64,000 nucleotides of DNA, from positions 20,567 to 84,566 of the forward strand of contig DAHXON010000001.1 in NCBI GenBank assembly GCA_027364875.1. Reading direction: 5' to 3'. Below are positions 939 through 58,246 of this stretch, in pieces. This stretch comes from Chloroflexota bacterium. GTDB taxonomy: Bacteria > Chloroflexota > Limnocylindria > Limnocylindrales > CSP1-4. The notes beneath the pieces were generated by a model. That model saw nothing but the letters and a program-made list of their open reading frames with translations. It did no database searches and was not told the origin of the DNA. The number at the start of each line of letters is the position of its first letter. Position 1 is the stretch's first letter. Both the position numbers and the translations under genes were made by a program.

Positions 939-1871
939 GTGGCCGCGCCGCCGCCCCTGATCGTCCTGGCCGGTTCCACGGCCACGGGCAAGACGGCCCT
1001 GTCGCTCGAGCTCGCCGCGGCGCTCGGGGGGCGCGGAATCCACTCCGAGATCATCTCCGCCGACTCGCGCCAGGTGTACCGGGGCATGGACATCGGCACC
1101 GCGAAGGCGACCGCCGAGGAGCGGGCGCGGGTCCCTCACCACGGCCTGGATCTCGTCGATCCGGACCGGCCCTTCAGCGTCGCCGACTTCCAGGCATGCG
1201 CCGCGGAGGCCCTGGAGGCTCTCTCGGCGCGCGGCGCAGTCGCCATCCTCGCCGGCGGAACCGGTTTCTATCTTCGCGCCGTGGCCCGCGGACTCGCCAC
1301 CGACGAGCTGCCCTGGGACCCCGTTGTGCGAGGCGGTCTCGACGCGCGACTGGCGGCCGAAGGGCTCGACGCCCTGGTGACCGATCTGCGCCGCCTGGCC
1401 CCGACGCGGGCGGCCGCGGTGGCCCTGCACAACTCCCGGCGCGTCCCCGCGAACGGTCGCGATTTCCAGGGCCCTCACGACGCGCCGCTGCCGGAGCCAC
1501 GCGGCTACGGCCGGCCGGTGCTGTGGCTGGGTCTCCGCGTAGAACCCACGACCCTGCGCGAACGGATCCTCGCCCGCGCCCGGGCCCAGTTCGACGCGGG
1601 CTTGATCGACGAGACGGCGGGGCTGATCGCCCGCTTCGACCCGACCGCGCCGAGCTTCTCGGGGATCGGCTACGCCGAGGCCATCGGCGTCATCGAGGGC
1701 CGACTGACCCGTGAGGAAGCCGTCGCGCTCGACGCCCACCGGAACGTAGCCTTCGCCCGTCGCCAGGCGACCTGGTTCCGCCGCGAACCCGACATCCGCT
1801 GGCTCGACGCCACGGACGCACGCCCGCTCCAGGACGCCCTGGCGACCGCGATCGCGTACCTGGAGGCATAG
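939..1871 (+). CDS. miaA: tRNA dimethylallyltransferase MiaA
   Basis: GTG start. P-loop GSTATGKT and the ISADSRQVYRGMDIGTAK motif. Canonical miaB-miaA-hflX neighbourhood. Confidence 0.9.
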   Translation: MAAPPPLIVLAGSTATGKTALSLELAAALGGRGIHSEIISADSRQVYRGMDIGTAKATAEERARVPHHGLDLVDPDRPFSVADFQACAAEALEALSARGAVAILAGGTGFYLRAVARGLATDELPWDPVVRGGLDARLAAEGLDALVTDLRRLAPTRAAAVALHNSRRVPANGRDFQGPHDAPLPEPRGYGRPVLWLGLRVEPTTLRERILARARAQFDAGLIDETAGLIARFDPTAPSFSGIGYAEAIGVIEGRLTREEAVALDAHRNVAFARRQATWFRREPDIRWLDATDARPLQDALATAIAYLEA

Positions 1872-1921
1872 CCTCTCGAGGCCGTCCGGTTCCCGGCGCG
1901 CTTCGGCTATCCTGCGCGGGT

Positions 1922-3244
<1,323 letters not shown>

Positions 3245-3266
3245 CAAGCCCGCTGCCGGCTTGAAC

Positions 3267-3307
3267 CGCGATTCCGTTCGCTTCCGTCTCCGCGATTGCC
3301 CGTTCGC
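3267..3307 (+). repeat. Direct repeat CGCGATT(N0-2)CCGTTCGC x2, 24-nt period, just after the hflX stop
   Basis: cgcgattccgttcgc at 3267-3281 and cgcgattgcccgttcgc at 3291-3307, read directly from the sequence. Confidence 0.5.
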
Positions 3308-3362
3308 ACCCTCCGGGCGACCCAGAACATCCGTTCTCATACAATCGCCGGAGCCCGAGACT

Positions 3363-3392
3363 GTCCACTACCCGTGTGGGCGGGGAGTGGAC
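3363..3392 (+). other. Strong extended hairpin GTCCACT-a-CCCG-tgtggg-CGGG-g-AGTGGAC in a long non-coding region
   Basis: 7 bp + 4 bp perfectly complementary arms read from the sequence. No T-run follows, so it is not a canonical terminator. Confidence 0.6.
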
Positions 3393-3427
3393 AACCTTCA
3401 AAATGAACGGCCGTGCGGCCAAAACTG

Positions 3428-3561
3428 GTGGATAAGCCTCTTCCTGCGGGCCGCTCCGGACCGTACATTTCGTCTTGCCCGGAGGGGCCAGCGAGATCGA
3501 ACACCAGACCAGCGGTTTCAACTGAAACGGTGAACGGTCTTCGCAAAAGTCTTCGGATCGG
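3428..3561 (+). ncRNA. Copy A of a conserved structured non-coding element (candidate cis-regulatory RNA/sRNA) upstream of ppm1
   Basis: Shares ordered blocks with copy B: GTGGATAAG-N3-CTT, TCT-N-GCCCGGAGGGGCCA, CGAAC, TCTTCGGATCGG. No plausible ORF. Local GC ~60% by hand count. Exact RNA ends unknown. Confidence 0.5.
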
Positions 3562-3905
3562 CAACGGTCCAAGGACCGAGCGATGATCAGGATCCGCGGA
3601 AGGCGGAATGTAGAGGGTTTGGTGGGCGGTTCCGGCAGTGGCCGGAGCGCGGTCCGCCGTTCGAGCGAGAAGTCTTCGGACTCCTTGCCCACGGTGGTCA
3701 GAGCGGCCAGCACACGCGGATCCGTTTCCCGATCGAGACGGTTCCTCCGGGCGCTTTTTTGTGCCCGGAAGACGCGGAGTAGGGGACGCCCGCCGGGCGC
3801 AGTACCGACGCCGGCAGCAGCGCCATCCCGGCCGCGCAGGTCGCCGAGCGGGTAGGGGACAGACGGGTTATCCTCGGCCGCGTCCCAACGAACGCAAGGA
3901 ACGAG

Positions 3906-4661
3906 ATGCCGCCCGTCGCCCCAAGCATCTGGATCATCGTCCCGACGTACAACGAGCGGGACAACGTGGGTCCGATCACCGATGCCATCCTGCAGACCGT
4001 CCCGCAGGCGCACGTGCTGATCGTCGACGACGGGTCTCCGGACGGCACCGGCGAGCTCGCGGACGAACTGGCTCGAGGCAATCCCGCGATCGCGGTCCTG
4101 CACAGGACGCAGAAGCAGGGCCTGGGTCGGGCCTACGTCGCCGCCTTCGAGGAGCTTCTCGCCCGCGGCGCCGACGTGGTGGTCCAGATCGATGCCGACT
4201 TCAGCCATCCGGTCCGCTTCCTGCCTGGCCTCCTGGAGCCTCTCGTGAGCGACCGGGCGGACGTCGTCCTGGGATCCCGCTACGTCAAGGGCGGTCACAT
4301 ACCTCGCTGGAACCTGGTCCGGCGCGTCGTGAGCCGGGGCGGCAGTCTGTTTGCCGGCGTGGTCCTCCTCATGCCGTACCGCGACCTCACCGGGGGGTTC
4401 AAGGCGTGGAAGGCTTCGGTCCTGCGGGACATCCAGCTCGATCGGCTGCACGCCGGCGGCTACGCCTTCCAGATCGAGACCACTTTCCGCGCCCGACTTG
4501 CCGGGGCTCGCGTCGTGGAGGTGCCCATCACCTTCGAGGAACGACGAGTGGGACAGTCGAAGATGACCATGGACATCTTCATGGAGGCCTTCCGCCTGGT
4601 CCTGGCTCTTCGCTTTACCACGCTGCGTCGCCGCCAGAAGAGCATCTTTCCGCTCCACTAG
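3906..4661 (+). CDS. ppm1: Polyprenol-phosphate mannose synthase (GT2, Ppm1/Dpm1-like, catalytic domain only)
   Basis: IWIIVPTYNERDN, VLIVDDGSPDGT, VVQIDADFSH, GSRYV, GGFKAW motifs. AAGGA RBS 6 nt before ATG 3906. Confidence 0.88.
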   Translation: MPPVAPSIWIIVPTYNERDNVGPITDAILQTVPQAHVLIVDDGSPDGTGELADELARGNPAIAVLHRTQKQGLGRAYVAAFEELLARGADVVVQIDADFSHPVRFLPGLLEPLVSDRADVVLGSRYVKGGHIPRWNLVRRVVSRGGSLFAGVVLLMPYRDLTGGFKAWKASVLRDIQLDRLHAGGYAFQIETTFRARLAGARVVEVPITFEERRVGQSKMTMDIFMEAFRLVLALRFTTLRRRQKSIFPLH

Positions 4662-4792
4662 TCCGTCGTACCCGGGGTCCCCGCCCTCAGGACGCACGTT
4701 CTCTTTCTTGCAGCGGTCGCCTTTCCGGGCGGCGATGGCTGTGCAGCGATCGTGGATGTCGGCCTCGTGGACCCGCATCTTTCTCCAAACTC

Positions 4793-4916
4793 GTGGATAA
4801 GGTTCTTGGCGGCGAGACCGCCCTGACCTAGAGTTGTCTCTGCCCGAAGGGGCCACGGACAACCGAACGACTCGACCGATTCTCGGATCGGGCGAACGAT
4901 GCGGAACCGAGGTTCC
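4793..4916 (+). ncRNA. Copy B of the conserved structured non-coding element, upstream of the GT87 gene
   Basis: Same ordered blocks as copy A (4793-4807, 4837-4855, 4864-4868, 4880-4891). Hairpins at 4808-4822, 4833-4863, 4876-4891, 4903-4916. Confidence 0.5.
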
Positions 4917-4940
4917 TTCGGGCGTTCTTGTATATCGCAT

Positions 4941-4982
4941 GCGGCCCGCCGAGGCACCGAGCGCCGGCGGGCCGCTTTTTTT
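4941..4982 (+). terminator. Rho-independent terminator (11-bp perfect GC stem + T7)
   Basis: GCGGCCCGCCG (4941-4951) pairs with CGGCGGGCCGC (4965-4975) around a 13-nt loop, then TTTTTTT at 4976-4982. Confidence 0.85.
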
Positions 4983-5049
4983 CGTCGCCTGCGGCCCGCG
5001 CCCCGGCGCTGCTAACATCGGCATCCTTCGACACCTTGCAGGAGGGAGC

Positions 5050-6411
5050 ATGGCGAAGATGGAGGCCCCGGCGGCGCCGAGCGCGCCCGCGGCGGGAGCC
5101 CGAGGGATATCGGGCGCGATCGCGTCATCGTTGCCGGCGAGTCGGGGAGCTCAGTTCGCCTGTCTCGCGGTCGTGGCCATGGGGATCCCGCTCGCGTGGT
5201 GGGTGATCTCCACGGTCGTTCGCGGCGGCAGCAGCTTCAACGACTACCACGACTTCTACTACGCGGCGCGTCTGATCACTGAAGGCCGTTCGCCATACGA
5301 CATGCACGCCCTCGGACAGCTGGCGACCTCCGAAGGTCAGAAGTTCGTCGTGGGGACGGGCTACTCGTACTTCCTGCCGTTCGCCGTCGCTCTGATACCG
5401 CTGTCACTTCTGCCGTTCACGGCCTCGGTCCTTCTCTTCAACGCCCTGGGGCTCGGACTGTTCGGCGTCACCGTGGCCGCGTGGATCGGCTGGGCGCACG
5501 GTTGGTCGACCGAACTGTTCGGCCGGCGTATCGTCCTCGCGGCCGCCGCCGGGCTCTACCCGTCGGTCTACGGAACGATCGCCAACGGGCAGGCCAACCT
5601 CGTCCTGATGCCGTTCCTGGCGCTCGGTACGGCCGCCGTGCTCGAGAGCTCGACAGGTCGGCGCGCCTTCACGGGCGGCATCGGTGTCGGCCTTGCGGCC
5701 GTCGTCAAGCTCACGCCCGGCCTCTTCGTCGTCCCGTTGGTGATCGCCCGTCGAATGAGCGCCGTGGTGGGGATCGTCCTGGGGATCGCCGGTGCCATTC
5801 TGCTTGCTGCCCTCGCCGTTCCGTGGGCCGGAGAGGGGAGTGGCGGCCTGCTGGCGCTCCTGGATCCCGACCCCTACTTCACCAACCAGTCGATCAACGG
5901 CTTCGTCAGCCGCCTGGTCTTGCGGTCCTCGCGAACCCTGCCGCTCTGGGACCACGCCTTCGACGCCCGGCTGGCGGCCTTCGCGGCCACCCTGACACTC
6001 GCCCTGGCGACCCTCGCGATCCTCTGGGCCGCACGACGGTCGCTGCAGGGCAGGCGCGGCCTCGCCCTCGGTCTGGGCCTTGCCCTGGTCGCAGGCTTGC
6101 TCGGGGCCCCCAAGGGCACGTACTGGAACCAGCTCTTCCTTCTCGTGTCCGCCGGCCTGTTGCTCGCCGTCGAAGCGCCCGATCTGCGGATTCGCCGCCT
6201 CGGCGCACTAGACCTCACGCTGCTGTGCGCATGGCTGGTCGGAACTTCGCTCCAGACCTACTTCTGGATGTATCCATTGCCAATGGCCGGCGATTTCCCG
6301 GCCCTTACGACTCTGCTGACGTCGAGCTCGATCTACGGCGCGCTCGCGCTCTGGCTCGTCCTCGCACGCGGACTCCTCGCGTCGCCGCGTCCGCCAGAGG
6401 AGGGATGGTAG
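5050..6411 (+). CDS. Polytopic GT-C mannosyltransferase, GT87/DUF2029 family
   Basis: GGAGGGA RBS at 5041-5047 then ATG 5050. Multi-TM protein with the NDYHDFYYAARLITEGRSPYD loop typical of DUF2029. Sits next to ppm1. The longer ORF start at 4834 is rejected because of the terminator inside it. Confidence 0.75.
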   Translation: MAKMEAPAAPSAPAAGARGISGAIASSLPASRGAQFACLAVVAMGIPLAWWVISTVVRGGSSFNDYHDFYYAARLITEGRSPYDMHALGQLATSEGQKFVVGTGYSYFLPFAVALIPLSLLPFTASVLLFNALGLGLFGVTVAAWIGWAHGWSTELFGRRIVLAAAAGLYPSVYGTIANGQANLVLMPFLALGTAAVLESSTGRRAFTGGIGVGLAAVVKLTPGLFVVPLVIARRMSAVVGIVLGIAGAILLAALAVPWAGEGSGGLLALLDPDPYFTNQSINGFVSRLVLRSSRTLPLWDHAFDARLAAFAATLTLALATLAILWAARRSLQGRRGLALGLGLALVAGLLGAPKGTYWNQLFLLVSAGLLLAVEAPDLRIRRLGALDLTLLCAWLVGTSLQTYFWMYPLPMAGDFPALTTLLTSSSIYGALALWLVLARGLLASPRPPEEGW

Positions 6412-6640
6412 GAGCGGAGTTCTCGCGTCTCGCGGGGTGGCCCGAGCGCGCGACCTAACTACCGATAAGAGAGGTTATGTCCGTTCTGGTACGATTCTCT
6501 CCACAGCCGATGCTCCGGGGCGATCCGGCAGGCGCGTCGACGCGGTTCGAGGCGGTCCCCCGCGGGCATACTCCGAGCCCGATCGTGAGCCAGCGAAGGC
6601 CGAGAGCTTCCGCCGGCGCGGCGTCCATACATGGACGTTC

Positions 6641-50886: not shown

Positions 50887-51675
50887 TCAGCCGCGTCGTG
50901 ATGCCCGGAGCGGCCTGAGAGCGACCACGCCGAGGACCGACGAGAAGGCCAGAAGGATCAACGGCAGGGCCGGTCCGCCGCCGGTCGAACCGCTGGAGGG
51001 AAGCTGCGTTGAAGTCGGGGGAGGACTGGAGGTCGGGCCGGGTCCGGAGGTCTCACCCGCGAACGATTCGAACGGGGTTGGCGTCGAGGCCACAGTGGGC
51101 GTCGCGCTCGGGGCCATGGTGGGGGTCGCCGTCGGGCTCGTCAGGTCCACGGTCGCGCACCGGACCGCGGGGTCGTAGCCGTTGTCCACCGAGTTGTCCT
51201 TGTTGCGATTGGGCCCGCCGGCAATGAGGCTCTCGTCACCTGTCGCCGGGAATGGTTTGACCTCGCCGAGGTCGTACATGATCACGCAGACCATGTACGT
51301 TCCCGAAGCCGCGTACGTGTGCGAGACCGGACCCCAGGTGCCGCTTCCGCCCTGGTCCGGAACCGTCGGCTGGAAGACGACGTTGGTCGCGGCAGTGCCG
51401 TCACCGATGTGGTACGAGCCAACGTCGTTGCCGCTCGTGACGTCGCCCCAGGAGATGGCGTAGCCGATGTAGCTCGGGACCGGGTCTTTCGGTTCGGCCG
51501 TCCAGGTCCAGCTACCCGATACCTGGACGGACATGCTGGTCACGGTGGCGCTGATCGAAGCCGGCCTGGCGGAGTGCGCGGAGGCGACGGCCGCGAAGGC
51601 GACCATTGCCAGCGCGACGCTGGCCACTCCCGCAACGACCTGGCCGGCCCGCCGCCAATGGGGACGCGGTGCCAT
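50887..51675 (-). CDS. Secreted protein with a PKD-like domain, Thr/Pro-rich stalk and C-terminal TM anchor
   Basis: Signal peptide ...AAVASA|HS. PKD-like HTYAASGTYMVCV. C-terminus PPPTSTQLPSSG + hydrophobic helix + RPLRASRRG. Confidence 0.65.
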   Translation of the reverse strand: MAPRPHWRRAGQVVAGVASVALAMVAFAAVASAHSARPASISATVTSMSVQVSGSWTWTAEPKDPVPSYIGYAISWGDVTSGNDVGSYHIGDGTAATNVVFQPTVPDQGGSGTWGPVSHTYAASGTYMVCVIMYDLGEVKPFPATGDESLIAGGPNRNKDNSVDNGYDPAVRCATVDLTSPTATPTMAPSATPTVASTPTPFESFAGETSGPGPTSSPPPTSTQLPSSGSTGGGPALPLILLAFSSVLGVVALRPLRASRRG

Positions 51676-53943: not shown

Positions 53944-54435
53944 TCATCGATAGTTCGTGAACTGCAATGGCACCGGTTCATCGAGCTCCTTCAGTCGGGT
54001 GATGACCCGCTGAAGATCGTCTCTGCTCTTGCCGAAGACTCGAAGCGCATCTCCCTGGATCTGAGGCTTGACCTTGGGGAACTCCTCACGGACCAGCTTG
54101 CTCAGCTTCCGCGCGAGGTCCTCGTCCAGGCCCCGCCGCAAACCGATGTGCTGGCGGACCTTGTTGCCGCCGGCGGGCTCGACCTTGCCCCAATCGAAGA
54201 TCTTGAGCGACAGGCTCCGCCTGACAGCCTTGCTCTCGATGAGCTCGCGGATCGCCTTGGCCCGGAATTCGTCGTCCGTGATGAGGATCAGCTCCGTCCG
54301 GGATTGGGTCAGATCGAACGTTGCGCCCTTGAAATCGTAGCGCTGCTGAACCTCGCGCCTCACCTGGTCCAGGGCGTTGCGCATCTCCTGATCGTCGAAA
54401 TCGCTCACGACATCGAAAGACGATTCTCCCGCCAT
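53944..54435 (-). CDS. yajQ: YajQ-family nucleotide (c-di-GMP)-binding protein, UPF0234
   Basis: SFDVVSDFDDQEMRNALDQVRREVQQRYDFKG...PLQFTNYR. Confidence 0.9.
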   Translation of the reverse strand: MAGESSFDVVSDFDDQEMRNALDQVRREVQQRYDFKGATFDLTQSRTELILITDDEFRAKAIRELIESKAVRRSLSLKIFDWGKVEPAGGNKVRQHIGLRRGLDEDLARKLSKLVREEFPKVKPQIQGDALRVFGKSRDDLQRVITRLKELDEPVPLQFTNYR

Positions 54436-54590
54436 CGACCCTCCTGCACCTCATGGGCTTGGATGCTGGCCCGCTCGAATACTGCGGACGCCAACGCTAC
54501 ACGCTTCGGCGTCCATTGTCCCTTACTCCGTCCACCGGGCGCCGGCCGGCGGCCCCATCGGCGTCGCGTCCACGGGCGTGCGGGCGAAGG

Positions 54591-56246
54591 CTATCCACCC
54601 AGCGCGACCAGCAGAAGTTCCGCGATCCGATAGCTCTTGCCGCCTCCCATGACCAGGACGGCGTCCCCGGGCTTCACTCGACCGGCAAGCCAGGCGGCGG
54701 TCTCCTCCACCGAGCCGGGAGCGCCCGCGACTATGCCCGGCCGAACCCGCGCCACCGCTTCGGCGAGTGCGGCGGCCGAGGTCACGGTCGTGTCCGGATC
54801 CCGACTCGCCCATATGTCGGCGATCGCCACGGCATCGGCCGTTGCCAGGACTCGGGCGAAGTCGTCGAGCATGGCCGCCGTCCGATGGTACGTGAGCGGC
54901 TCGTACACGGCCCAGACTCGCCGGCCCGGCTCCAGCTGCCGGATGGCCGCGAGAGTCTCGCGGATGGCGGTGGGGTGGTGGCCGTAGTCGTCATACACGA
55001 CCACTCCCCTGCCCTCGCCCTTCCGCTCGAGCCTCCGGCCGACTCCGTCGACCGATCCGAGCGCCTCCGCCACCGAGCTCGCGGGCACTCCCATCGCCAG
55101 CGCCGCGCCGGCCACTCCCAGCGCATTGGAGGCGTTGTGGCGGCCCGCCAGGCGGAGACGCACCGAAAGTGGTCCGGGCATCAAGCTGCCGTCCAGCTGG
55201 AGTGTGGTGCCGCCAGGGCCCGTCTCCGTCAGGCGGCCGGTCAGCGTCTCGTAGTGCCAGTTCGTAGCATTCGCGCCGCGGGTCGCGGCGACGTCCGGCC
55301 CCACGAGGCTTACTGCCACCAGACGCCCCTCCCAGTCGCGGAGCTTCCCGACAACCTCGGCAACGCCCTCGTCACCGATGTTGGCCACGAGAGCCGGCTC
55401 GCGCACCGCTCCGGCCGCTTTCTGGAGCCAATCGCGGAAGCACTCCACGACCGCGTCCCGGTTCTCGAAGACGTCCGGGTGGTCCCACTCCGCGCTCGTG
55501 AGGACCGCCAGATCCGGGCGGTACGGGTCGAAGTTGCCGGCGTACTCGTCCGCTTCGACGACGAATGGCCGGCCACTGCCCAGGCGGGCCGTTGACGGCA
55601 GCCCGGGCTCCGCGCCGAGGGTTGTGACAGAGCGCGGAAGGAGCGCTCCCACGCAGGCCGCCGGATCGAGCCCCGCGGATGCCAGGACGTGCGTCAGCCA
55701 GCCCGAAGTGGTGCTCTTGCCATGGGTTCCGGCCACTCCCACCAGGTACCGGCCGACCGCGGCGTCGGCAATTACCTGCTGCCAGGGCTCGATGGGGATG
55801 CCGGCTTCTCGTGCCGCCACGAGCTCCGCGTTGTCCGGGTCGATCGCCGTGAGAGCCTTGGTGACCGCGAGCCGCTCCGGGGCCTGCCCGCCCGCGCCCG
55901 GTGCGGCGGCGGAGCCGCCCGCGCCCGGTGCCCCGCCGGCACTCGCCACGCCGCCCGGTGCGCCGCCGGAGCTGCCCGCGCCGCCCGTGCCCCGGACGTG
56001 AGCGGCGTCGTGGCGCCACTGGAGACCGATCCCGGCGGCCAGGATGGGCGGCGTATAGGGCGAGGGGCCGCCGGGATCGCAGCCACTCACCAGGGCGCCG
56101 GCGGCATGGGCGAGGAGCGCCGCGGCGCTGGCGCCGGCGCCGGCGGCACCCACGACGTGGATGCGCTCGCCCGGGGCGATCTTACGGGCCGGTCGCGCGG
56201 CGGCCAGTCCGGTGCCCACGGATTCCTTGCCTCTCGGCCTGATCAT
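54591..56246 (-). CDS. Mur ligase family protein (MurC/Mpl-like) with a Gly/Ala-rich insertion
   Basis: [54 protein letters not shown]. About 40-aa insert [35 protein letters not shown]. Confidence 0.8.
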
Positions 56247-56755
56247 GGCTCTTCGGCCGAAGGTTGGGCGAGCTCGAGCCGGGCCCGCAGGAGCTCCAGC
56301 GCGGCACGCGCGCTTGCTTCTCGATTCGCGGCCCTGTCGCCGATCCAGACGAAACGGCGGACTTCCACGCCTTGACCATCCGCCACGGCGACGTAGGTCA
56401 GCCCGACCGGCTTCGCCGCGCTACCGCCGCCGGGCCCCGCCACGCCCGTGACCGCGAGCGCCACGTCCGCGCCAAGGCGCTCAAGGGCTCCCAGCGCCAT
56501 CGCCCGCGCCACCTGGGCGCTGACCGCGCCATGGGCTTCCAGCTGGTCCTCGGGCACGCCGAGCAGCCGCGCCTTGGCCTCGTTCGAATACGAGACGATC
56601 CCACCCGGGAAGTACTCACTGGACCCGGCGATGTCCGTGATCGCCTTCGCCACGAGTCCACCCGTGCACGATTCGGCGGTCGCGAGCTTCAGGCCGAGCT
56701 CCAGGCAGCGCTTCTGGACTCGGATGGCCAGCTGGTCCAGCGGTTCCTCGCCCAT
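56243..56755 (-). CDS. pncC: Nicotinamide-nucleotide amidohydrolase PncC (CinA C-terminal domain only)
   Basis: [37 protein letters not shown]...[14 protein letters not shown] overlap with the mur ligase gene. Confidence 0.88.
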
Positions 56756-56761
56756 CCGGGG

Positions 56762-58246
56762 TCAGCAGGCCGAGACGTTCTTGGGCGGATGCGTGGCGTC
56801 TATGAACAGCCTGAGCCCACCGAACTTGGCAACCGACCCTACGGATACGCCGTTGACCGTCACGTACACGTTGCTCGCCTTGCCCGTGCGAATACAGACG
56901 TTCTGCTTGGCGCTGACGGTGACCTTGAAGCCGTCCGGATAAGTGCTCGTGCCGATGGCCACGCCGTCGCGGTAGTAGGCCATCCAGGCTCCACCGGCGC
57001 CCTTCACCTCGATCAGGACCACCACGCCGGTGAACGGCACGGCCACGGTCCGGCTCACGACCACCGATTTGTGGCCCTGCGTGTCCTGGCCCTGCAGCGA
57101 CAGGCGCCACACTCCCGCCGGAAGCTGGAACGAGAAGTTGAAGTCGCCGGTTGCGGTCACGGACGTCGTGGCCGGGGCGGGTGCGGGCGGAGCGCTCGCG
57201 CCTGCGGACGGGTTCGCCGACGCTCCCGCGGAGGCCGGCGCGGGCGTGGCCGACGCTCCGGGCAAGGCCGAGGGGCCCGGCGATCCCGAAGTCCCGGGCG
57301 ACGCGCCGGGAGCCGGCGAGCCGGTGGAAGGCGGCAGCGTGGCGCCCGGAGCCGGCGGTACGCCCAGGTAAGTGGTGGTCAGGGTGACGTCGGTCACGAA
57401 GCTGCTCGTTCCGGTGATCGTGACGTTGCCGTTGGTGATGATCGCGTTGTCGGCCGGCGTCGCGAACGCCACCACCGGCACGGGCGCGGTCGGCGTGGGA
57501 CTCGGAACGTAGATGTAGACCTTCACCACCTGGCTCGAGTGATTCGTGTCGATGTTCTGGGATTTGATGTCGAACTCGTTCTGGCCGGGCACCAGGACGG
57601 CCTGGTACGTCCAGTGGCCGCCGTCGTCGGCCGTGAGGGTCTTGGCGTCCTGGCCGTTCCAGGTGATCGTGACCGTGCTGCCCGCGGTGGCGGTCCCGGT
57701 CAGGAAGTAGTTCGTGGCGCCGATCGGAGCCGTGTAGTGGGCGACTCCGGGCGCGGTCACGCTGATGGTCGGATACGAGAGGAAACGGGTGACCTGGTAG
57801 CCGAAGTAGACGCTCACGATGCCGACGATGAGCACCACCGCCAGGATGACCATGTGGCTCGTCTGGAGGAAGAAGCCGCGCCGGGGCAGAACCATCGGCC
57901 GGGGCGCCCCGAGCATCGGCTGGGCGGTCGCGGCCTTCGGGCCGGTCTCGCTACGCCACTCGTCGATGATTTCGTCGGCGTCGAGGCCAAGATACGTGGC
58001 GTAGTTGCGCAGGAAGCCCCGGGCGTACACGTCGCCGGGCAGATCCGCATACTCTCCCGCCTCGAGCGCCACGAGGAACTTGTGGCGGATCTTGGTATCG
58101 CGCTCGACGCGGTACAGGTCCAGGCCGCGGACCTCGCGGGTGTCGCGGAGCTTGTCCCCCACCGTCGAGCGGCCGTTCCCATGGGAGCCCAGGCCGTTGG
58201 AGCTGGTCCGTCGCGTGGCACGGCGAATCGGGTTGTTGCTCGTCAT
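56762..58246 (-). CDS. RodZ-like HTH membrane protein (HTH_25 + TM + Ig-like + P/A/S-rich linker + DUF4115)
   Basis: VGDKLRDTREVRGLDLYRVERDTKIRHKFLVALEAGEYADLPGDVYARGFLRNYATYLGLD. TM MVILAVVLIVGIVSVYFGY. ATGA overlap with the ftsK stop. Confidence 0.8.
   Translation of the reverse strand: MTSNNPIRRATRRTSSNGLGSHGNGRSTVGDKLRDTREVRGLDLYRVERDTKIRHKFLVALEAGEYADLPGDVYARGFLRNYATYLGLDADEIIDEWRSETGPKAATAQPMLGAPRPMVLPRRGFFLQTSHMVILAVVLIVGIVSVYFGYQVTRFLSYPTISVTAPGVAHYTAPIGATNYFLTGTATAGSTVTITWNGQDAKTLTADDGGHWTYQAVLVPGQNEFDIKSQNIDTNHSSQVVKVYIYVPSPTPTAPVPVVAFATPADNAIITNGNVTITGTSSFVTDVTLTTTYLGVPPAPGATLPPSTGSPAPGASPGTSGSPGPSALPGASATPAPASAGASANPSAGASAPPAPAPATTSVTATGDFNFSFQLPAGVWRLSLQGQDTQGHKSVVVSRTVAVPFTGVVVLIEVKGAGGAWMAYYRDGVAIGTSTYPDGFKVTVSAKQNVCIRTGKASNVYVTVNGVSVGSVAKFGGLRLFIDATHPPKNVSAC

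Follow-up and report, generated by a model that had tools for sequence, protein, structure and literature searches.

Two paralogous structured RNA elements flank ppm1 in uncultivated Limnocylindria and point to a candidate family of small RNA genes

In this study, we examined two related, structured elements that flank the gene ppm1 in a 64,000-nt stretch of contig DAHXON010000001.1 (the window; G+C content 68.5%). The genes of the region, miaA (939-1871), hflX (1922-3244), ppm1 (3906-4661) and a GT87 glycosyltransferase gene (5050-6411), lie on the + strand throughout, and ppm1 encodes a GT2 polyprenol-monophosphomannose synthase. Named homologues of the ppm1 protein come from metagenome-assembled genomes (MAGs) of 'Candidatus Limnocylindrales', and the organism is therefore an uncultivated member of the Chloroflexota. 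Upstream of ppm1 lies RNA A, an element of about 276 nt (3477-3752, +), and downstream of it RNA B, whose core is a rod-like hairpin of 82 nt (4842-4923, +). Using the ppm1 protein as query and keeping one genome per species, we collected 36 related loci from Limnocylindria with ppm1 77-89% identical; with the window these make 37 loci, all retrieved via ppm1. Copies upstream of ppm1 are referred to as type A (37 copies) and copies downstream of it as type B (33 copies).

The original prediction described four sequence blocks shared by the two regions flanking ppm1, and took them for a candidate regulatory RNA, or DNA operator set, placed before two genes of cell-envelope mannosylation. The two main blocks are real and non-random. 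Block 1, GTGGATAAG, is found at 3428-3436 and 4793-4801 and nowhere else in the 64 kb, where 0.08 copies would be expected by chance. Within the second shared region, TGCCCGRAGGGGCCA occurs at 3476-3490 and 4841-4855 with no other exact copy in the window (when up to two mismatches are allowed, 0.86 matches are expected by chance and a third, imperfect one appears at 50902), and for the 21-nt block AAACTNGTGGATAAGNNTCTT the chance expectation is 0.00. The sharing of blocks 1 and 2 was thereby confirmed, far above chance in 64 kb. The 1-nt indel that had been placed in the best-conserved block proved to be an artefact of anchoring on TCT, and none is needed because an ungapped alignment of the copies (offset 1365) runs from about 3323 to 3490. 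Block 3 (CGAAC) was disregarded as too short. Block 4 (TYYTCGGATCGG) belongs, in copy A, to a hairpin that covaries and has another sequence in almost every relative, and the block's likeness to copy B is therefore due to chance. On the 3′ side, a further block common to both copies had been overlooked (GGTTCCTCCGGGCGCTTTT, 3740-3758; GGTTCCTTCGGGCGTTCTT, 4911-4929); it consists of GGTTCCTYCGGGC followed by a U-rich tract and is the pairing partner of block 2 (GCCCGRAGGGGCC).

Conservation in the ppm1 loci of relatives, the lack of which the original prediction had named as a refutation, was found in all 36 Limnocylindria loci: about 450 nt upstream of ppm1 each carries GTGGATAAG and, at 48-50 nt, GCCCGGAGGGGC, and in most of them the pair is repeated downstream of the gene. 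More distant ppm1 loci (at most 61% identity) have neither GTGGATAAG nor GCCCGGAGGGGC. We determined copy number with nhmmer profiles of type A and of a third type, C (see below), and with a covariance model of type B, run over 2.45 Mb of fetched DNA. Every ppm1 locus holds one type A and at most one type B copy and every type C locus one type C copy, with no extra copy elsewhere in that DNA.

Structurally, both elements are closed by the same terminal helix. This helix, P1, joins the first 12-13 nt of the element to the 3′ block, GCCCGGAGGGGC(C) pairing with (G)GUUCCUCCGGGC, and thus runs end to end over 12-13 bp; in RNA A it is formed by 3477-3488 with 3741-3752, and in RNA B by 4842-4854 with 4911-4923. 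In RNA A it encloses 11 further helices. Across the 37 sequences of the type A alignment (A2; length 272-277 nt, 12 helices, 69 pairs), 96.4% of paired cells can pair, as opposed to 30-51% when the partners are slid, and 20 pairs show compensatory changes compared to 4-6 in the slid controls; none of 500 shuffles reached the observed values. Type B is far more uniform (alignment A4), with a mean identity of 94%, loops included, and 99% of cells paired against 31-57% in slid controls. Its internal loops AACGAC and ACGAUG, the largest being 6x6, are almost invariant, and its apical loop is CUCG. Within P1 itself, position 6 is informative over 76 family members: A occurs only with partner U (8/8), G is found with C in 48 and with U in 20, and no A-C mismatch was seen (uncorrected Fisher p = 1.6e-4). 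Two G-U pairs of P1 are invariant, and the type B covariance model (R1) scores 106 bits on the + strand and 50 bits on the − strand, which together place the RNA on the + strand. Indels of 1-2 nt break the frame throughout the type A alignment, and open reading frames overlapping the elements have no Pfam match; the elements are therefore not coding. These findings support the claim that the two elements are homologous, non-coding, structured RNAs of the + strand. A segment of RNA A, GGAAGUCGGAAUG, resembles the start region of ppm1; the two show no co-variation across species, and we set this likeness aside as coincidence.

The fold first put forward for these elements is not the one that covaries. 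It consisted of a local GCCC-GRAG-GGGC hairpin within an outer helix, and both form in this window only. The bases of the local hairpin belong to P1, and the covarying position 6 of P1 would fall in its loop. The outer helix takes in bases upstream of the predicted start of the RNA. It is complete in a single one of the 22 distinct type A sequences and in a single one of the 33 of type B, no better than in shuffled upstream sequence. In the larger alignment, covariation was found for type A, in a structure other than the one drawn.

Upstream of the elements, boxes and promoter hexamers recur at fixed distances when every copy is anchored on the G of GCCCGG, and our promoter calls are predictions from this positional conservation and not from a consensus scan. 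In front of RNA A, box 1 (AGTGGACAA, 3386-3394) stands at −90 and box 2, which is block 1 of the original prediction (GTGGATAAG, 3428-3436), at −49 to −41, followed by a predicted core promoter (3441-3469) with a weak −35 hexamer TTCCTG (3441-3446), a 17-nt spacer and the −10 hexamer TACATT (3464-3469). RNA B is preceded by box 1 (GTGGATGT, 4752-4759) at −90, box 2 (GTGGATAAG, 4793-4801) at −49 to −41 and a predicted core promoter (4806-4834) with TTGGCG (4806-4811), again 17 nt, and TAGAGT (4829-4834). A GTGGA starting at −89 to −91 is present in all 37 type A copies, and one starting at −89 to −92 in 26 of the 33 type B copies; box 2 is exact at −49 in 31/37 type A copies. At −13 to −8, 34 of 37 type A copies have TAnnnT (or CAnnnT) and 28 of 33 type B copies TAnnnT, with TAGATT, TACATT, TATTGT and TAGAGT among the −10 variants. 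The −35 hexamer is TTGGCA, TTGGCG or TTGGAA in most type B copies, as opposed to the TTCCTG-like one of type A, and −35 boxes TTGGCA or TTGACC are found at 17-nt spacing. In nearly all copies, 7 nt separate the −10 box from the G of GCCC, and block 2 (GCCCGRAGGGGCC) starts exactly 7 nt past the conserved −10 box.

Read from this anatomy, block 1 (GTGGATAAG-N3-CTT) is a putative upstream box of the protein-binding type together with the −35 region of a promoter. It would thus be promoter-proximal DNA, and block 2 would begin at the predicted transcription start. About half of the blocks taken for RNA would be promoter DNA upstream of the predicted start. The boxes resemble those bound by DnaA: box 1 of RNA A matches the DnaA box TTGTCCACA on the opposite strand at 8/9 positions, with the final A of the consensus, the outermost position of the 9-mer, not conserved. 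Further upstream, a box in the TnTCCAC orientation (CTGTCCACT, 3361-3369, +, about −115 from the RNA A start) is inverted relative to the box at 3386-3394; it recurs in few type A copies and is regular in type C.

At the 3′ side, P1 is directly followed by a U-rich tract. The 12 nt after it hold on average 6.7 T in type A, 5.2 in type B and 4.4 in type C and other members, where 1.9 would be expected. In types A and C, the 3′ strand of P1 can pair alternatively with a downstream segment around a U-rich loop; in the window this gives a hairpin, TCCGGGCGC-UUUUUU-GUGCCCGGA (3746-3769, +), which overlaps the 3′ strand of P1 and has the U-rich tract as its loop. Over the 37 sequences it is 91% paired; G-U pairs are frequent in it and double changes absent. 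Looked at as a possible expression platform, the region thus offers P1 with its U tract and a competing 3′ hairpin, the competitor being located after the U tract. RNA B is followed by a second, conventional predicted terminator, an 11-bp GC hairpin (GCGGCCCGCCG / CGGCGGGCCGC, 11/11 complementary) with a run of seven T (4941-4982, +), the sequence of which is kept in most type B loci. Just 3′ of this terminator, and before a downstream gene that differs, several loci carry paired CTAGGC / GCCTAG palindromes (L003 ~5105-5137, L017 5179-5208, L018 ~5140-5168, L020 ~5130-5160, L030 ~5095-5125 and L036 ~5180-5207); these look like an operator of an unrelated regulator.

The same arrangement extends beyond ppm1. 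Scanning metagenome contigs for the exact pattern TGCCCGRAGGGGCCA, we found 115 chance matches and 5 true relatives among the 120 stretches listed; the viral contigs examined gave 120 chance matches and no true copy. Thus, at least five metagenome loci share the boxes, the promoter spacing and P1 and differ in the interior. Two of the five are downstream of an RDD-family gene, and in four further RDD homologues (61-89% identical to the protein of locus L089) the RNA lies between the RDD gene and the gene for purine nucleoside phosphorylase (PNP). We call these type C (L089:1131-1286, L201:4880-5036, L202:4833-4989, L203:4807-4922 and L204:4838-4953). Boxes, promoter spacing and P1 are present in all five, and the gene order is acs, x, moaA, RDD, RNA, PNP and thyX, the last on the − strand. 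Type C RNAs measure 116-157 nt and consist of P1 and 2-3 repeated hairpins displaying GAUCACAUCAA, one whole hairpin module being present or absent between relatives. The multi-branched RNA A has one module related to this hairpin, and RNA B has none. Upstream of type C stand four boxes, two TnTCCAC(A) 11 nt apart and then two GTGGAnA, and the box spacings of 11, 22 and 32 nt place them on one face of the helix. Perfect (9/9) DnaA boxes, TTATCCACA and TTGTCCACA, are found at L159 and L130. Another member, of 188 nt, lies upstream of the inorganic pyrophosphatase gene (ppa) at locus L118. The loci of this wider family share the G+C content of the ppm1 loci and stem from the same series of samples.

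How do these elements relate to their neighbours? The original prediction tied them to mannosylation by their position upstream of both ppm1 and the GT87 gene. This did not hold, since the GT87 gene follows RNA B only in the window and its closest relative, L023 (2/37 loci). It lies between ppm1 and RNA B in two others (L014 and L031) and is not nearby in about 30 loci, and in some loci a convergent gene or unrelated genes follow RNA B. A constant placement in the 5′ untranslated region (UTR) of mannosylation genes was thus not found, with GT87 after the element in two of the 37 loci and before it in two. Past the RNA B terminator and before the start of GT87 stands an extended −10 box, TGCTAACAT (5010-5018, +; counterpart in L023, TGGTAACAT), which suggests that the GT87 gene has its own promoter. 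The link to the pathway also fails in the wider family, as the same promoter and P1 stand before PNP, ppa and other genes, and no partner gene is constant across it. A transferase that uses polyprenol-P-mannose is often coupled to ppm1, with no fixed place relative to RNA B. In L004 and L209, the gene of a 610-aa GT-C glycosyltransferase with a weak match to PMT_2 takes the place of GT87 directly after ppm1, its start codon overlapping the ppm1 stop codon, and in L004 this PMT_2-type gene separates ppm1 from RNA B. The spacer between RNA A and ppm1 is variable in length (about 20 to 150 nt) and in sequence. Some 35 nt ahead of the ppm1 start codon, all 37 loci conserve a separate motif, GGGTAGGGGA-N8-GGTATCCTCGG (3849-3880, +), which may be the ppm1 promoter (with a −10-like TATCCT) or a hairpin of the 5′ UTR (GGGGA / UCCUC). 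Motifs resembling a −10 box stand just before ppm1, PNP and GT87.

Two features of the surroundings deserve mention. Upstream, miaA and hflX are adjacent (939-3244), with a gap of only about 50 nt and without hfq, and the space directly after hflX is taken by RNA A; the classical proteobacterial arrangement is miaA-hfq-hflX. About 1.5 kb downstream, a 28-nt element, ACT(T/A/G)CCGATAAGAGAGGTTATGTCCGTT (6458-6485, +), is shared exactly by the window and 26 of the 36 related loci (L001:7033, L003:5671, L004:6991, L009:5096, L034:4867 and about 20 more), always downstream of RNA B and with flanks that are unrelated between genomes. It resembles the XerC/XerD site dif of B. subtilis, ACTTCCTAGAATATATATTATGTAAACT (PMC3025954). 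This likeness suggests that the locus probably adjoins the replication terminus, which would explain the varying genes after RNA B. The cumulative GC skew of the window declines steadily over 1 to about 56 kb and rises from there (about 54000-58000); a local change of gene strand or a larger feature are possible causes. An origin, oriC, was considered and rejected, the GC skew being negative across 1-56 kb and the window showing neither an AT-rich unwinding element nor a DnaA signature.

In line with the original prediction, these RNAs matched no known family. Rfam 15 gave no match over the whole window at gathering thresholds, and a permissive search of 3200-5100 brought up nothing beyond chance (E 2.9-9.7; scores up to 20 bits, where the thresholds are 50-70). 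Nothing relevant was obtained with Rfam 15 on L089, L118, L130, L202 and L203, nor did a scan for tRNA and tmRNA (ARAGORN) yield anything. The literature searched contained no description of these RNAs, and a search with the P1 sequence gave irrelevant primer matches only. A 6S or Ms1 RNA, which is a rod of about 180-300 nt whose large central bubble mimics an open promoter, does not fit the multi-branched RNA A with its 12 helices or the 82-nt RNA B, there is no Rfam 6S match, and the synteny reported for Ms1 (HAD hydrolase / oxidoreductase) is different (PMC9130861). A sequestering small RNA (sRNA) of the Csr/Rsm type, acting by GGA loops, does not fit either, since the conserved type C loop GAUCACAUCAA lacks GGA. 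The family is best read as an undescribed one of soil Chloroflexota (Limnocylindria).

Taken together, we consider it somewhat more likely than not that ppm1 is flanked by two paralogous, independently transcribed genes for small structured RNAs, each with its own promoter, whose products act as trans-acting siblings. As we envisage it, each gene would have a sigma-70-type promoter with direct GTGGAYAA boxes, DnaA-box-like, at about −90 and −49. Transcription would start at the G of GCCCGGAGGGGCC, the first base of P1, and the 5′ end would pair with the 3′ GGUUCCUYCGGGC to form the 12-13 bp of P1, directly followed by the U-rich tract. P1 would clamp both ends of the RNA and, together with the U tract, probably serve as a terminator or as a stabilising end structure, enclosing a multi-helix domain of 250 nt in RNA A and a 56-nt rod with invariant loops in RNA B, for which the conventional terminator after P1 would provide a second stop. 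A larger set of such genes would keep promoter, boxes and P1 and swap the interior. One protein bound to the boxes could co-regulate the siblings, either DnaA (8-9/9 matches) or a regulator of the OmpR type (11-nt tandem repeats). As for their function, which is a guess, the likeliest mode of action in trans would be protein binding, with the invariant loops or the repeated modules as contact sites, because the unpaired loops of type B are invariant and the hairpin modules of type C vary in number as in sequestering sRNAs.

Sibling small RNAs that share upstream activator sites are known from GlmY/GlmZ, RsmX/Y/Z, CsrB/C and Qrr1-5. Our RNAs resemble these in comprising at least two homologous sRNA genes, which may belong to one genome, each with its own promoter, the same upstream sites at fixed positions and its own terminator, features that are here predicted at the level of sequence. 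Type C, with its variable number (2-3) of repeated hairpin modules, further recalls the Csr/Rsm sponges, although its module GAUCACAUCAA lacks their GGA motif. Unlike in the known siblings, the boxes are DnaA-box-like and not sites for GacA/UvrY, LuxO or GlrR, only the promoter and the terminal helix are common and not the functional interior, and RNA A exceeds typical siblings by far in size and in the intricacy of its fold.

Several points weigh against this interpretation. The expression, start and end of RNAs A and B are predictions only, the organisms being uncultivated. RNA A lacks a canonical terminator, and type A has a weak −35 box. A strict consensus promoter scan of the window flagged neither RNA promoter because each hexamer matches at most 4/6 positions, and under the same kind of strict rules a simple promoter/terminator scan also missed the RNA B terminator. 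Type B, which varies too little, offers only 2 covarying pairs. An attempt to place types A, B and C in one genome gave no proof, as cluster names were absent and the ERZ identifiers denote samples and not MAGs. Type A is upstream of ppm1 in 37/37 loci, but all loci were fetched through ppm1, and the linkage is biased by this retrieval. Finally, a leader is also compatible with the position of RNA A, type C and the L118 RNA, each of which is followed at 60-250 nt by a same-strand gene.

The main rival is therefore a cis-acting leader or attenuator, which we regard as unlikely but as deserving the most serious consideration. RNA A would be the long 5′ leader of ppm1, and type C and the L118 RNA would by analogy be those of PNP and ppa, with P1 and its U tract as a conditional terminator that depends on the enclosed fold or on a bound ligand or protein, read-through refolding the RNA into the 3′ hairpin. 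Much in the anatomy suits this: a close, same-strand gene downstream in 37/37 type A loci, 5/5 type C loci and L118, a P1-closed domain with a U-rich tract behind it, a conserved hairpin that is mutually exclusive with P1 because it shares the P1 3′ strand, and, in the 276 nt and many helices of RNA A, the size and complexity of a large riboswitch. In contrast to known riboswitch and attenuator leaders, however, P1 itself must be the terminator stem, and the alternative strand is made after the U tract and hence is unable to prevent termination there. The same P1 and promoter also surround unrelated interiors before unrelated genes, RNA B is isolated by its strong second terminator and in some loci has a convergent or unrelated gene downstream, and the variable ppm1 spacer, the −10-like motifs just before ppm1, PNP and GT87, and the retrieval bias in the ppm1 linkage all lessen the case for a leader.

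A different possibility is that the DNA itself is the primary element, a cluster of DnaA-box-like sites near the likely terminus that serves in DnaA titration or reactivation, or as an operator set, with the transcripts secondary. The boxes do recall DnaA-box clusters (the dnaA promoter, datA/DARS-type loci), with 9-mers matching TTATCCACA / TTGTCCACA at 8/9 positions in the window and perfectly in L159 and L130, in both orientations, directly upstream of a promoter and, in the four type C boxes, phased on one helix face; the dif-like 28-mer 1.5 kb downstream would suit such a role. Nevertheless, the box ends are degenerate, the 64 kb contain six other 8/9 matches by chance, and an OmpR-type regulator fits the tandem repeats equally well. 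There is no skew switch, AT-rich unwinding element, dnaA or dnaN here, and the transcribed part is more conserved than the boxes, with covariation and G-U pairs at the RNA level. We thus hold this to be improbable, and more so that the RNAs are divergent members of a known end-paired family (6S RNA, Ms1, Y RNA, SRP RNA or RNase P RNA), which we think very improbable. The terminal stem joining both RNA ends around a variable interior, in paralogues of different size, does recall Y RNAs and 6S/Ms1, and RNA B is a rod with internal loops. But no Rfam 15 family came near threshold in the window region or five further loci, and ARAGORN found nothing; RNA A is multi-branched instead of forming a rod around a central bubble, RNA B falls far short of 6S in length, the synteny of Ms1 is unrelated (PMC9130861), and neither a Ro-binding bulged helix, a tRNA-like domain nor a large central bubble is present, nor an rsr gene in the loci examined. 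To a REP/MITE-like repeat, or a functionless remnant of a recent local duplication, we give next to no credence. Two copies in direct orientation, 1365 nt apart, speak in its favour, but there are only two copies in 64 kb, one type A and at most one type B per locus in 2.45 Mb, and no true copy among the viral contigs examined. The duplication is moreover older than at least 36 species-level genomes, its shared parts are under selection and its interiors have diverged. A dispersed repeat, which the original prediction had named as a refuting outcome, is contradicted by this. Overall, its observation was partly confirmed and its interpretation partly supported: the elements are homologous structured RNAs, not mannosylation switches, and the fold proposed for them was wrong.

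Beyond the sibling RNA genes that we favour, a bolder and rather doubtful reading would see a modular RNA superfamily of the Chloroflexota, in which one chassis of promoter, boxes and P1 carries interchangeable cargo of 56 to 250 nt and is driven by DnaA or a cell-cycle regulator bound to the phased boxes, with the type A domain itself a novel large RNA that functions, for example, as ligand sensor, ribozyme or core of an RNA-protein complex. If this were true, the replication state would control a set of riboregulators.

In conclusion, our analysis corrects a tempting link of these elements to cell-envelope mannosylation and adds a strongly conserved family of structured RNAs to the Limnocylindria, abundant uncultivated Chloroflexota of soil and peat. 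An RNA of about 276 nt with 20 covarying pairs is uncommon in size and complexity among bacterial RNAs of unknown function. Also unusual is the design of the shared chassis, in which a phased DnaA-box-like promoter and an invariant end-to-end helix frame unrelated interiors. This chassis provides a concrete handle for finding the regulator of these RNAs and their partner.

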